From: Escherichia coli
Lineage (GTDB): Bacteria; Pseudomonadota; Gammaproteobacteria; Enterobacterales; Enterobacteriaceae
Assembly (NCBI RefSeq): GCF_003334765.1
Contig: NZ_QOWT01000003.1
Length of the DNA stretch: 64,000 nt
Reading direction: 5' to 3' (one strand)
Position 1 is the first letter of the stretch, and each line of letters starts with the position of its first letter. The notes beneath the pieces are model-generated. The model ran no database searches. It had not been told where the DNA came from and saw only the letters and a list, made by a program, of their open reading frames with translations. Below are positions 54,318 through 59,237 of the stretch, in pieces. The translations under genes and the position numbers were made by a program.

Positions 54318-54712
54318 GTGTTCCCCGCGCCAGCGGGGATAAACCGGCAAAAACCGGGCAATCGCAAAAAGGCGTAATGTGTTCCCCGCGCCAGCGGGGA
54401 TAAACCTGTGTTTGCGGCATTAACGCTCACCAGCATTTCGTGTTCCCCGCGCCAGCGGGGATAAACCGACGTGGTCATGGGTGCTGCTGTTGCAGAGCCA
54501 GTGTTCCCCGCGCCAGCGGGGATAAACCGAGCAGATACACGGCTTTGTATTCCGTGCGCCCGTGTTCCCCGCGCCAGCGGGGATAAACCGAATAGCAATA
54601 GTCCATAGATTTGCGAAAACAGGTGTTCCCCGCGCCAGCGGGGATAAACCGGAGCCTGACGAGACTACTGAGGCCGTTCTGTCGAGTTCCCCGCGCCAGC
54701 GGGGATAAACCA
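54318..54712 (+). CRISPR. Type I-E CRISPR array, 7 repeats and 6 spacers of 32 bp, leader-proximal end at 54318
   Basis: 29-bp repeat GTGTTCCCCGCGCCAGCGGGGATAAACCG at 54318, 54379, 54440, 54501, 54562, 54623 and 54684 with 61-bp period; repeat 2 ends CCT; terminal repeat is degenerate (GAG...ACCA). Confidence 0.96.
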
Positions 54713-56855: not shown

Positions 56856-58133
56856 TTACTTGCTGCTAGCCATTGCGGGGGCGCTATCAGCAGTACGAAT
56901 TTTTTGGAACAGCAAAAAGGTAAAGACAATCACCATGCCAAGCGCCGCCATGCCCATCAGCCACATATTGCGGTAGGCTTCTGCAGCGGGCAGGGTGTCT
57001 TGCCAGTGGCCGATAATTGGGTAAACGAAGACATCCGGCAGGAATCCAATCACCGAACAAATACCTACCGTGGTGCCCATAATGTAAGACGGTGTTCTCG
57101 CTTCGCCAGGGCAGGCCCAGTACAGCCCGCGTGAGGCGTAACAGGTGAATCCCAGCAGTAAAATCAGGCCAATCCCCATCGCGACCGATTGCGGGTTAGA
57201 GTTCGTGACGAGCAGGGCAGTTAACGTCAGCAGGCCGAGTACGGAAAGGATTTGGATCACGCGGGTAGGGGATTTCACTTTGCTGTAGGTGGTGATTATG
57301 CCGCCAAGTGGGCCGCACAGCGCGCGGAATATTTTGTTGATCACAATCCCCATGTAGCTCGCCGCCACCAGCGACATGCCATACATTTCGGTCAGATAGT
57401 TGGTGGAGTAACTCAGAATGGCGTAGATGGTGAAGACGCCAAAAATCACCATGCTGCAATACCAGGTGGTGCTGATACGCAAAACGGCCAGGATGTCGCT
57501 AAGCTGGAATGACTGTTTTTCTTCGTTATTGGCACTGCGCAGGTTGTTGTTATCGCTAACAAAAAACCAGCACAGAATCCCCAACAAGATGTAAACCACA
57601 CTATAGATGATAATGACCGTTTTCAGGCTGGTGCTGTCATCCGGTGCAAAGCGAGAAAAGACCCACATGGTAAACACCGCCAGCGACATTACACCGACGC
57701 CGCGCAGCCCTTCCATCCAGCCCATAATTTTCCCTTGCTCGCTATGATCGCCAAGCAACGATGCAGCTTTAATCGACACCGACCACAGCATTAAAATCGT
57801 CGTTATCGCAAAGGCGATCTGAATACAGAGCATTACCCACAGCGGTGGATACGTTGCCATTAACAGACCCAGTAATCCGGTAATGATCATCGCGGAAGTA
57901 ATCATTTTGCGGTGTGAAAATTTATCGGCAATAACGCCGCTGGGGGCATAAAGAATAATGGCCGCAATACCAAAGGTACTCATTATTAAACCTATCTCGG
58001 TATTGCTGAATCCCATAAATTTCGCCATGGGAATTTGATAAATATAACGTAAATAAGCCAGGTCGAAACTAACGCCGCCGCTAAAACTAATTATCGCGAG
58101 GGTTATCCAACGGCGATATGAGTTGTGTTGCAT
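56856..58133 (-). CDS. yqcE: MFS transporter, substrate unknown
   Basis: 425-aa polytopic membrane ORF recognised as YqcE. Confidence 0.85.
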   Translation of the reverse strand: MQHNSYRRWITLAIISFSGGVSFDLAYLRYIYQIPMAKFMGFSNTEIGLIMSTFGIAAIILYAPSGVIADKFSHRKMITSAMIITGLLGLLMATYPPLWVMLCIQIAFAITTILMLWSVSIKAASLLGDHSEQGKIMGWMEGLRGVGVMSLAVFTMWVFSRFAPDDSTSLKTVIIIYSVVYILLGILCWFFVSDNNNLRSANNEEKQSFQLSDILAVLRISTTWYCSMVIFGVFTIYAILSYSTNYLTEMYGMSLVAASYMGIVINKIFRALCGPLGGIITTYSKVKSPTRVIQILSVLGLLTLTALLVTNSNPQSVAMGIGLILLLGFTCYASRGLYWACPGEARTPSYIMGTTVGICSVIGFLPDVFVYPIIGHWQDTLPAAEAYRNMWLMGMAALGMVIVFTFLLFQKIRTADSAPAMASSK

Positions 58134-58311
58134 ATCGTATTCCCATTTGTAATAGACAAAAAAAAGAGAAAAGTAAGCCGCCCTTTCAGGTGGATTACTT
58201 TTCTCAGGTCTCTAGTAATTGAAATAATAAATAACATGGAAAGCAGAGGTGTTGTGTGAGAGTAATCACGCTTCTGCTTTTTAAAATTATTTGACAATAC
58301 GAATATCACAC

Positions 58312-58327
58312 TGTGATTACGATCACA
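58312..58327. promoter_or_regulatory. Consensus CRP site in the yqcE/ygcW divergent region
   Basis: TGTGA-TTACGA-TCACA, a perfect match to both CRP half-sites, overlapped by a second palindrome TCACACTGTGA; TTGACA at 58291-58296. Confidence 0.6.
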
Positions 58328-58380
58328 TTAGCAGTTATGCCCTTATGCTAAAAATTATCTCCAGTTACCAGAGATAATGA

Positions 58381-58427
58381 GAAAGGTAACTTCCCTCTCG
58401 CGGGGGAAGTTACCTTTCTTTTTTTTT
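58381..58427 (+). terminator. Intrinsic-terminator-like hairpin about 25 nt upstream of the ygcW start codon (possible attenuator or leader structure)
   Basis: Perfect 15-bp stem GAAAGGTAACTTCCC / GGGAAGTTACCTTTC with 8-nt loop, followed by 9 consecutive T. Confidence 0.6.
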
Positions 58428-58451
58428 GCCTTACGGAAATTGGAGCTAACT

Positions 58452-59237
58452 ATGTCAATCGAATCTCTCAATGCGTTCTCAATGGATTTTTTCTCCCTGA
58501 AAGGTAAAACCGCAATTGTTACCGGTGGGAATAGCGGTTTAGGCCAGGCATTTGCCATGGCGTTGGCCAAAGCTGGCGCAAATATCTTTATTCCTAGTTT
58601 CGTCAAAGATAACGGCGAAACAAAGGAAATGATTGAAAAACAGGGTGTTGAGGTGGACTTCATGCAGGTGGATATCACCGCAGAAGGCGCGCCGCAGAAG
58701 ATTATCGCTGCTTGCTGTGAGCGTTTCGGTACAGTTGATATTCTGGTTAACAATGCCGGTATTTGTAAGCTGAATAAGGTGCTGGACTTCGGTCGTGCCG
58801 ACTGGGATCCGATGATTGATGTGAACCTGACCGCCGCATTCGAGTTAAGCTATGAAGCTGCAAAAATTATGATCCCGCAGAAAAGCGGCAAAATTATTAA
58901 TATCTGTTCATTGTTCTCTTACTTAGGTGGACAATGGTCACCTGCATATTCTGCCACTAAACATGCTCTTGCCGGGTTCACCAAAGCTTATTGTGATGAA
59001 CTAGGTCAATATAATATTCAGGTAAATGGTATCGCCCCTGGCTATTATGCAACAGATATTACGCTGGCGACACGCAGTAATCCAGAAACCAATCAGCGCG
59101 TTCTTGATCATATTCCGGCAAACCGTTGGGGCGATACTCAGGATTTAATGGGCGCAGCCGTATTCCTCGCAAGTCCGGCATCGAATTATGTCAACGGGCA
59201 TTTATTAGTGGTTGATGGCGGTTATTTAGTGCGCTAA
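58452..59237 (+). CDS. ygcW: Short-chain dehydrogenase/reductase (SDR), substrate unknown
   Basis: ORF track starts at 58377; the likely start MSIESLNAFSMDFFSLKGKTAIVTGGNSGLG gives 261 aa; Rossmann motif TGGNSGLG; catalytic YxxxK. Confidence 0.85.
   Translation: MSIESLNAFSMDFFSLKGKTAIVTGGNSGLGQAFAMALAKAGANIFIPSFVKDNGETKEMIEKQGVEVDFMQVDITAEGAPQKIIAACCERFGTVDILVNNAGICKLNKVLDFGRADWDPMIDVNLTAAFELSYEAAKIMIPQKSGKIINICSLFSYLGGQWSPAYSATKHALAGFTKAYCDELGQYNIQVNGIAPGYYATDITLATRSNPETNQRVLDHIPANRWGDTQDLMGAAVFLASPASNYVNGHLLVVDGGYLVR

Follow-up and report, generated by a model that had tools for sequence, protein, structure and literature searches.

Why should a strong intrinsic terminator stand between a promoter and the gene that it serves? 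The 318-bp intergenic region between the divergent genes yqcE and ygcW raises this question. It lies in the 64-kb stretch of Escherichia coli chromosome analysed here (the window, to which coordinates refer unless another record is named) and belongs to the ygc cluster, for which no substrate, regulator or inducing condition is known although 93% of complete E. coli genomes carry it. The 381 bp around the elements described below recur at 95-100% identity in 5068 of 5426 complete E. coli genomes. Our analysis points, with good though not full confidence, to twin leader terminators under CRP-activated promoters that form an antitermination switch of the GlpP type, read by the cluster-encoded protein YgcP and layered on CRP activation.

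Both leaders contain a strong terminator. Ahead of ygcW, an earlier note on this DNA had described a perfect 15-bp stem followed by T9, ending about 25 nt before the start codon. The stem is indeed perfect, but it is 16 bp long (58380-58395 with 58404-58419), and the T9 ends 24 nt ahead of the ATG. The note had counted this hairpin, an 11-bp inverted repeat (GAGAAAAGTAA-N18-TTACTTTTCTC) and a CRP site as three distinct elements. All three exist, but the repeat, which had been placed 10 nt too low (58156-58195 instead of 58166-58205), is the same device as the hairpin, facing yqcE. It is followed on the minus strand by a T8 tract that had been missed, as had a second CRP-like site, and the T8 makes the repeat the yqcE-leader twin of the ygcW-leader terminator. 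The yqcE-side stem extends to 17 nt per arm with 88% complementarity, and hairpin and T8 together end 24 nt ahead of the yqcE ATG. Both hairpins are variants of a single sequence, GAGAAA(A/G)GTAA ... TTAC(C/T)TTTCT(C)T8-9, and their flanks are partly symmetric too. The window contains 3 matches to the shared pattern GAGAAARGTAA..TTACYTTTCT, where chance would give 0.00, and a terminator scan returned 8 sites in the region against 0.8 expected. The ygcW hairpin folds at -31.6 kcal/mol (z = -6.3) and the yqcE hairpin at -22.3 kcal/mol (z = -3.8), with 0 of 200 shuffles as good.

Transcripts end at both hairpins in vivo. Term-seq of E. coli K-12 by Adams et al. 2021 places a 3' end at 2900311, 38 nt upstream of ygcW, with 40,640 reads, and another at 2900556, 36 nt upstream of yqcE, with 1,557 reads (PMC7815308); with k = 2958725 - w, where k is the K-12 position and w that in the window, these are 58414 and 58169. 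The intrinsic termination scores are 15.8 for the ygcW leader and 11.4 for the yqcE leader, against a threshold of 3, whereas the Rho scores (0.50 and 0.61) were both called 'No'; neither end lies in a Rho region and no regulatory element was assigned to either (PMC7815308). The strong, Rho-independent end before ygcW supports the suggestion in the note of an attenuation or antitermination leader.

The short independent transcript that the note had also envisaged exists as well: ecr2774, an RNA of 73 nt, begins at the predicted start and reaches the hairpin (PMC4681348, Table S5). Romero et al. 2014 reported it together with ecr2775 as novel small RNAs (sRNAs), one per strand at this place, and filed them as 'single extended stem-loop, perhaps REP-like' (PMC4681348). 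In window coordinates, both RNAs span the predicted starts to the U-tracts, and the ygcW leader is matched by a covariance model at 58357-58432 with 77.2 bits. The two RNAs were placed in the window with an offset between U00096.2 and U00096.3 that we take to be 1976-1978. They and the orphan 5'-untranslated-region 3' ends of Adams et al. 2021 are the same molecules, namely terminated leaders. Earlier listings gave them without function, regulator or conservation analysis; most likely they are the off-state products of an antitermination switch.

Each leader is transcribed from its own CRP-associated promoter. The perfect CRP site named in the earlier note, TGTGATTACGATCACA, is found exactly at 58312-58327 and is here called site 2; the overlooked site is site 1. 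In 56 of 56 intergenic regions, the centre of each CRP site lies at a constant 43.5-46.5 nt from the first T of its own TTACY, with 43.5-45.5 nt for site 1, and the spacing between the two CRP sites varies from 36 to 173 nt. The constant distance places each site at about -41.5, the class II position, from a start 2-4 nt ahead of the conserved leader element. There is one CRP site per promoter, site 1 for yqcE and site 2 for ygcW. Site 2 is bound by CRP in vitro in Footprint-seq (PMC12871828) and in vivo in chromatin immunoprecipitation from enterotoxigenic E. coli (PMC4287617), and yqcE-ygcE has been classed as Crp-activated (PMC8085971). The region has what defines a class II CRP promoter, a consensus site near -41.5 relative to starts known from RNA-seq, with binding evidence for site 2 and with site 1 placed by sequence. 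In Firmicutes, the leaders are placed in the same way behind sigma-A promoters (TTGACA-17-TATACT-6 nt-AGTTACC). Two further symmetries around the CRP sites were set aside as functional elements. The palindrome ATCACA-C-TGTGAT (58305-58317), which the note had seen overlapping site 2, is real, but it is not conserved outside E. coli and is probably due to chance; like the repeat AAAGCAGA/TCTGCTTT around site 1 (58240-58280), it occurs in only some Escherichia sequences and is not maintained in other genera.

With YqcE as the probe, we collected one locus per species for 59 Enterobacterales and located the genes of the cluster. Both yqcE and ygcW are present in 57 of the loci, and in all of these both leaders carry an element of ~75 nt (114 of 114 leaders, 57 species), with the consensus RTTACY - AGAGA - N3-4 - GAGAAA(A/G)GTAA - variable upper stem/loop - TTRCYTTTCTC - T7-9. 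A covariance model built from 37 of the leaders finds exactly two strong matches per locus (59-87 bits). No further copies were found upstream of ygcN, ygcS or ygcP, nor elsewhere in the window or in 1.2 Mb of loci, where the best extra match scored 21.8 bits (E = 0.21). In E. coli, the median copy number per genome is two, with both copies at yqcE/ygcW and unannotated, and none on plasmids. A comparison with Rfam 15 gave only sub-threshold chance matches in this region of the window and no gathering-level match in eight related loci.

Examining covariation in orthologous loci, as the earlier note had proposed, we find the terminator hairpin both conserved and covarying, so that the reading in the note withstands the refuting check that it had named: 96% of the cells in the alignment are paired, 8 of 16 pairs have changed on both sides, and 0 of 500 shuffles reach the same covariation. 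The lower stem is invariant in sequence, and the upper stem varies freely with its pairing retained. The arms are also palindromic at the DNA level, as would suit operators for a dimeric transcription factor or repeats of the REP (repetitive extragenic palindromic) or ERIC (enterobacterial repetitive intergenic consensus) type, with the RNA structure incidental. Yet at one position of the stem, about half of the leaders have U-G and the others have U-A; since a U-G pair corresponds to an A-C mismatch on the opposite strand, it is tolerated only in the sense-strand RNA. The freely varying but paired upper stem, the invariant U-tract and the 3' ends in vivo argue in the same direction, and the cluster encodes no DNA-binding regulator. 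With only two copies per genome, both here, a dispersed repeat or mobile element was rejected, as was a DNA operator in view of the G-U pairing, the U-tract and the 3' ends mapped in vivo. We give this explanation next to no credence.

The element extends well beyond the Enterobacterales. In loci from Vibrio, Clostridium and Thalassobacillus, it precedes genes for a short-chain dehydrogenase/reductase (SDR), an FGGY kinase and a flavin adenine dinucleotide (FAD) oxidase, with 52-68 bits. When 241 million metagenome records were scanned blindly for the exact pattern, 26 loci were obtained: 24 have recognisable neighbours, all of them in ygc-type clusters, and two are short contigs without a match. 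In every phylum, the motif immediately precedes catabolic genes, and a ribosome-binding site follows the U-tract at 10-15 nt. This placement bears on whether the short RNAs are themselves the functional output, as trans-acting sRNAs or protein decoys, the hairpins being effectively constitutive terminators and the downstream operons cryptic. The RNAs do accumulate, as the abundant Term-seq reads for the ygcW leader and the northern signal for ecr2775 attest; a hairpin with a U-tail, which the leaders have, is the usual sRNA 3' end; and no inducing condition is known. Against this stands the constant placement ahead of catabolic genes, and the most conserved part is the terminator with the putative antiterminator rather than a free seed region. 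Furthermore, yqcE-ygcE mRNA responds to Crp, and ygcW and yqcE go unmentioned in the supplementary files of one sRNA prediction paper based on RIL-seq (RNA interaction by ligation and sequencing). We consider an sRNA output improbable.

A few loci depart from the common arrangement. In Limnobaculum eriocheiris (L035, 9897-9970), the intergenic region has shrunk to 136 nt and lacks both promoters and both CRP sites. One hairpin, with A9 on one side and T9 on the other, serves the two directions there, as if the two inverted leader copies had recombined, unless the assembly is at fault. Klebsiella spallanzanii (L007) and Citrobacter youngae (L009) have ~130 extra nt between the yqcE-leader terminator and the ATG, an insertion that resembles an ERIC element (also called intergenic repeat unit, IRU). 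One E. coli strain (NZ_CP080133.1, 1026933-1026979) retains only 47 nt of the intergenic region, namely those about CRP site 1 (58243-58289 in the window). The piece bears no annotated gene, and it suggests a scar of ygc cluster deletion. A contig labelled as a Planctomycetota metagenome-assembled genome (L060) holds 662 nt that match the yqcE/ygcW intergenic region of E. coli at 100% identity, and these are almost certainly contaminating E. coli DNA. Finally, an in-frame ATG at 58377 was considered as an alternative ygcW start or the start of a leader peptide and was rejected, as other leaders have TGAG, AGAG or CGAG in its place.

Which factor could read the leaders? The sole regulator encoded in the cluster is YgcP, which matches PF04309 over its full length (E = 1.6e-62). 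Its name in the NCBI prokaryotic genome annotation pipeline (PGAP) is 'glycerol-3-phosphate responsive antiterminator', and its relatives of solved structure, 3KTS and 1VKF, are annotated as glycerol-uptake antiterminators. The genes ygcN-ygcO-ygcP lie ~6 kb past ygcW, outside the window (RefSeq annotation). The cluster also holds ygcE (an FGGY kinase), ygcU, and genes for an FAD oxidase and electron-transferring flavoproteins (ETF). We find ygcP in the cluster in nearly all 57 species loci as well as in the Vibrio, Clostridium and Thalassobacillus loci. YgcP is among the best-conserved cluster proteins; in Klebsiella, for example, it is 95% identical, and the ETF genes reach 58-77%. Serratia, Erwinia and Pantoea have lost the ETF genes, and ygcP, which adjoins ygcE there, remains with the ygcW/yqcE/ygcE/ygcU core. 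Homologues 58-61% identical to YgcP are encoded in Vibrio hannami, Clostridium sediminicola and a Thalassobacillus, beside an SDR, an FGGY kinase and an FAD oxidase, the first two loci also carrying ETF genes. Likewise, every sufficiently long metagenome contig with the motif encodes a YgcP homologue (41-75% identical). The locus thus has the marks of a GlpP-type system: a PF04309 protein encoded with the regulated genes, intrinsic terminators in the leaders, and co-occurrence of element and protein.

An SDR or iron-dependent alcohol dehydrogenase (Fe-ADH), an FGGY kinase and an FAD-linked oxidase, with or without ETF, travel with YgcP across Proteobacteria and Firmicutes (L062, L063, L064, L099). 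The transporter is swapped, from a major facilitator superfamily (MFS) protein in enterics to a BCCT protein in the Vibrio, Clostridium and Thalassobacillus loci, which could be a clue to the substrate of the ygc pathway.

Leaders beside more distant GlpP homologues (34-37% identical), in glycerol-type contexts, obtain scores from the ygc model as well, with 31.3 bits (E = 5e-5), 22.1 bits (E = 0.006) and 17.9 bits. They carry a GAGA-rich element, AGA..GAGA(A/G), just ahead of the terminator, and score 18-31 bits overall. Canonical GlpP leaders were sampled here through six distant homologues only. This handful of loci offers a lead and suggests that tandem GAGA is a family-wide recognition feature of GlpP/PF04309.

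How could a terminator of this strength be opened? The 5' RTTACY duplicates the terminator 3' arm and is complementary to the RGTAAY of the 5' arm, and the helix so formed is exclusive with the terminator. Its loop of 14-18 nt is conserved and purine-rich, AGAGA-N3-4-GAGAAA, and contains two GAGA motifs. This alternative helix is the minimum free energy (MFE) structure of the first 36 nt of each leader, at -6.7 kcal/mol (ygcW) and -1.4 kcal/mol (yqcE), and the full-length leaders adopt the terminator fold, with -33.8 and -21.6 kcal/mol, respectively. In a register-corrected count over 112 leaders, the six core pairs of the alternative helix are 96-100% paired. The pair x5-a6 switches from C-G (30 leaders) to U-A (78), and x0-a11 from G-C (77) to A-U (34), with x0-a11 paired in 111 of 112. 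Position a11 pairs with its nominal terminator 3'-arm partner in only 43 of 112 leaders, against 111 of 112 with the 5' element, and one species (L022) shows a concerted change of all three strands. Automated pair counting, which includes ~15 misaligned rows, found 0 of 500 shuffles as good and far lower values for slid controls. Covariation in the aligned sequences thus speaks for the terminator and also for a weak alternative helix, which would sequester the terminator 5' arm. A weak hairpin overlapping a strong terminator and displaying a conserved loop would be the signature of protein-dependent antitermination.

Two mutually exclusive helices that are conserved, with sequence kept across phyla, would also be expected of a protein-independent riboswitch or attenuator, in which the RNA itself senses a metabolite, the nucleoside triphosphate level or temperature and switches between helices. 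The sensing part, however, would comprise only ~30 nt, and its one purine loop is unstructured, which is simpler than known aptamers allow; Rfam gave no match, there is no leader peptide frame, and an antiterminator-family protein is encoded in every cluster with enough contig. We regard such a device as highly improbable. Of the possibilities that the earlier note had left open, an antitermination leader is supported, and its likely effector is the GlpP-family protein YgcP rather than a riboswitch.

We propose, for antitermination by YgcP, the following course of events. The region holds two back-to-back regulatory units of the same design within its 318 bp. In each unit, CRP-cAMP bound at about -41.5 would activate a sigma-70 promoter with an extended -10, and the transcript starts 2-4 nt ahead of RTTACY-AGAGA-N3-4-GAGAAA. 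Some 65 nt on, with the start codon another ~24 nt away from its end, RNA polymerase meets the strong intrinsic terminator. By default it would terminate there, giving the 63- and 73-nt RNAs found in vivo and leaving the operons off. Meanwhile RTTACY could pair with RGTAAY of the 5' arm, giving the weak antiterminator hairpin that displays the two GAGA motifs in its loop. YgcP would stabilise this hairpin, or clamp the GAGA/5'-arm region, so that the terminator is blocked and polymerase reads through into ygcW-ygcUSRQ and yqcE-ygcE. We infer that YgcP binds the leader RNA and needs a ligand. By analogy with GlpP, for which GlpK makes glycerol-3-phosphate (G3P), the ligand would probably be a phosphorylated metabolite that the FGGY kinase YgcE produces.

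Several points weigh against this proposal. The Term-seq 3' ends at 58414 and 58169 lie within the A-U-rich lower stem, by 5 and 3 nt respectively, and not in the U-tract, unlike the RNA-seq ends of ecr2774 and ecr2775, which do reach the U-tracts; 3' exonucleolytic trimming after termination may account for the difference. ygcP lies apart from the leaders in a separate operon, ygcNOP, that has no motif of its own. A literature search on YgcP turned up no experiment and no paper giving a function, and no induction of these operons is reported and no inducer is known. The yqcE antiterminator helix is very weak and does not surpass shuffled sequences, and independent covariation events in the antiterminator helix are few, GUUAC/GUAAC being nearly invariant, which could reflect protein recognition of single strands rather than pairing.

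These last points would suit a variant in which YgcP or another factor binds the single-stranded GAGA..GAGAAA and the 5' arm directly, without the RTTACY:RGTAAY helix, in the manner of HutP or TRAP on their repeated triplets, RTTACY being a second protein contact. The near-invariance of GUUAC and GUAAC holds even across phyla, and the distant GlpP-type leaders retain the GAGA element without an obvious helix. Set against this, the double-sided changes at x5-a6 and x0-a11 and the three-way change in L022 preserve pairing, a11 tracks the 5' element and not the 3' arm, and U-G wobbles are tolerated. We hold binding without the helix to be doubtful, and favour the paired form of the YgcP-dependent switch.

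Table 1. Features of the yqcE/ygcW region in window coordinates, and related leaders in other loci (L-numbers, with coordinates of the respective locus).
Feature	Position	Strand	Basis and remarks
yqcE-leader terminator hairpin, GAGAAAAGTAATCCACC / GGCGGCTTACTTTTCTC	58166-58205	-	Inverted-repeat search, fold, covariance-model match (70 bits), Term-seq 3' end
yqcE-leader U-tract, T8	58158-58165	-	Sequence; every orthologous leader has T7-T9
ygcW-leader terminator hairpin, 19 pairs (16 perfect; 19 counts G-U)	58379-58420	+	Terminator scan, inverted-repeat search, fold, covariation, Term-seq
ygcW-leader U-tract, T9	58419-58427	+	Sequence; conserved
Putative antiterminator, yqcE leader: ATTACT (58214-58219) with AGTAAT (58194-58199), 14-nt loop AGAGACCTGAGAAA	58194-58219	-	MFE of nascent 36-mer, covariation
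Putative antiterminator, ygcW leader: AGTTACC (58363-58369) with GGTAACT (58385-58391), 15-nt loop AGAGATAATGAGAAA	58363-58391	+	MFE of nascent 36-mer, covariation
Terminated yqcE leader transcript, sRNA ecr2775, 63 nt	58157-58222	-	PMC4681348 Table S5; northern-verified; start ~58220-58222
Terminated ygcW leader transcript, sRNA ecr2774, 73 nt	58359-58432	+	PMC4681348 Table S5; start ~58359-58361
CRP site 1, TGTGAGAGTAATCACG, 9 of 10	58255-58270		Centre 41.5 bp upstream of yqcE-leader start, class II position
CRP site 2, TGTGATTACGATCACA, 10 of 10	58312-58327		Centre 41.5 bp upstream of ygcW-leader start; PhyloScan-predicted
yqcE promoter, putative extended -10 TGtTATTTA	58228-58236	-	Sequence, conserved block; from spacing to start and CRP site
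ygcW promoter, putative extended -10 TGcTAAAAA	58346-58354	+	Sequence, conserved GCTAAAAAT block
yqcE ribosome-binding site GGGA, putative	58141-58144	-	Read from sequence, 7 nt ahead of ATG
ygcW ribosome-binding site GGAG	58442-58445	+	Sequence; GGAG block invariant across orthologues
yqcE coding sequence (MFS transporter)	56856-58133	-	Open reading frame (ORF) list and RefSeq annotation of identical DNA; heads yqcE-ygcE operon
ygcW coding sequence (SDR oxidoreductase)	58452-59237	+	Sequence, ORF list, RefSeq; heads ygcW-ygcU-ygcS-ygcR-ygcQ
Distant GlpP-linked leaders	L091 6650-6732; L097 3651-3719; L098 2865-2933; L099 2679-2735; L094 1320-1375		Contexts: DAO, Fe-ADH, FGGY and MIP genes

Elsewhere in the window, a short array lies at 54440-54591 between queE and ygcE, with a 61-nt period and the repeat GTGTTCCCCGCGCCAGCGGGGATAAACCG. 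It is annotated as CRISPR (clustered regularly interspaced short palindromic repeats) in the matching RefSeq record, and the K-12 Term-seq data include 3' ends at its repeats.

Each piece was public already: the CRP site, the pair of short RNAs, their 3' ends and the name that YgcP owes to homology. The literature searched held nothing that connects these pieces, and no functional data on ygcP, ygcU, ygcE, ygcQ, ygcN, ecr2774, ecr2775 or PF04309. Conditional terminators would explain why the genes are silent despite a perfect CRP site, and would give a place to two orphan 'sRNAs' and two orphan Term-seq 3' ends. Read-through of a leader reporter would offer a handle for inducer screening and, should the proposal be right, a ready reporter for the function of the orphan ygc pathway. 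The ygc leader could also be the first clearly defined RNA target of the GlpP/PF04309 family, consisting of a weak 5'-terminal hairpin, tandem GAGA and a borrowed terminator 5' arm, a claim that we make tentatively, at slightly less than even chances. It would supply a sequence-defined RNA element for a family whose RNA recognition we did not find described. The cross-phylum RNA-protein pair would be a candidate portable switch for synthetic biology, a use already proposed for B. subtilis GlpP with the glpD leader (PMC9604022).

Three known systems invite comparison. In the hut leader of B. subtilis, the ligand-activated protein HutP binds repeated short purine-containing motifs upstream of and overlapping the terminator and blocks its formation (PMC2425495). 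The proposed ygc mechanism likewise has a ligand-activated protein acting on purine motifs near a terminator. HutP differs from YgcP in being unrelated in sequence and a hexamer with its own fold, and its target is two sets of NAG triplets as against the tandem GAGA of ygc.

The RAT (ribonucleic antiterminator) sites of BglG, SacY and LicT resemble the ygc leaders in mechanism only: there, too, a weak hairpin lies over the 5' arm of a strong leader terminator and its effect depends on a protein. The ygc leaders differ in loop sequence and size and have no link to the phosphotransferase system (PTS), and the cluster encodes no CAT_RBD or PRD domain; a search of it for a regulator with CAT and PRD domains found none, the only regulator being the PF04309 protein. 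The known protein-dependent catabolic antitermination system of E. coli is bgl. If our proposal is true, E. coli K-12 has a second such system, sensing a metabolite, in which the protein responds to a phospho-metabolite made by YgcE and which is conserved from Enterobacterales to Clostridia and Bacilli.

The closest likeness is to GlpP of B. subtilis, which acts in a G3P-dependent manner on the glpD, glpFK and glpTQ leaders. Both systems have a PF04309 regulator and an intrinsic terminator just past the promoter, and both combine catabolite control at initiation with antitermination in the leader. In both, the controlled genes include an FGGY kinase, a flavin-dependent dehydrogenase and a transporter, and leaders adjoining GlpP homologues 34-37% identical to YgcP share the GAGA-rich element ahead of the terminator. 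The ygc system differs in its SDR and its FAD oxidase with ETF, and glycerol-3-phosphate is probably not its ligand; identity between YgcP and the sampled glp-linked homologues is only ~35%. Its RNA site is defined here, whereas the literature searched gave no defined GlpP consensus. It further differs in its Gram-negative host, with class II CRP activation instead of CcpA, and in that two mirror-image leaders share one intergenic region. What sets the ygc region apart is thus the dual leader in mirror image, the Gram-negative CRP context and a sharply defined RNA element that is conserved across phyla.

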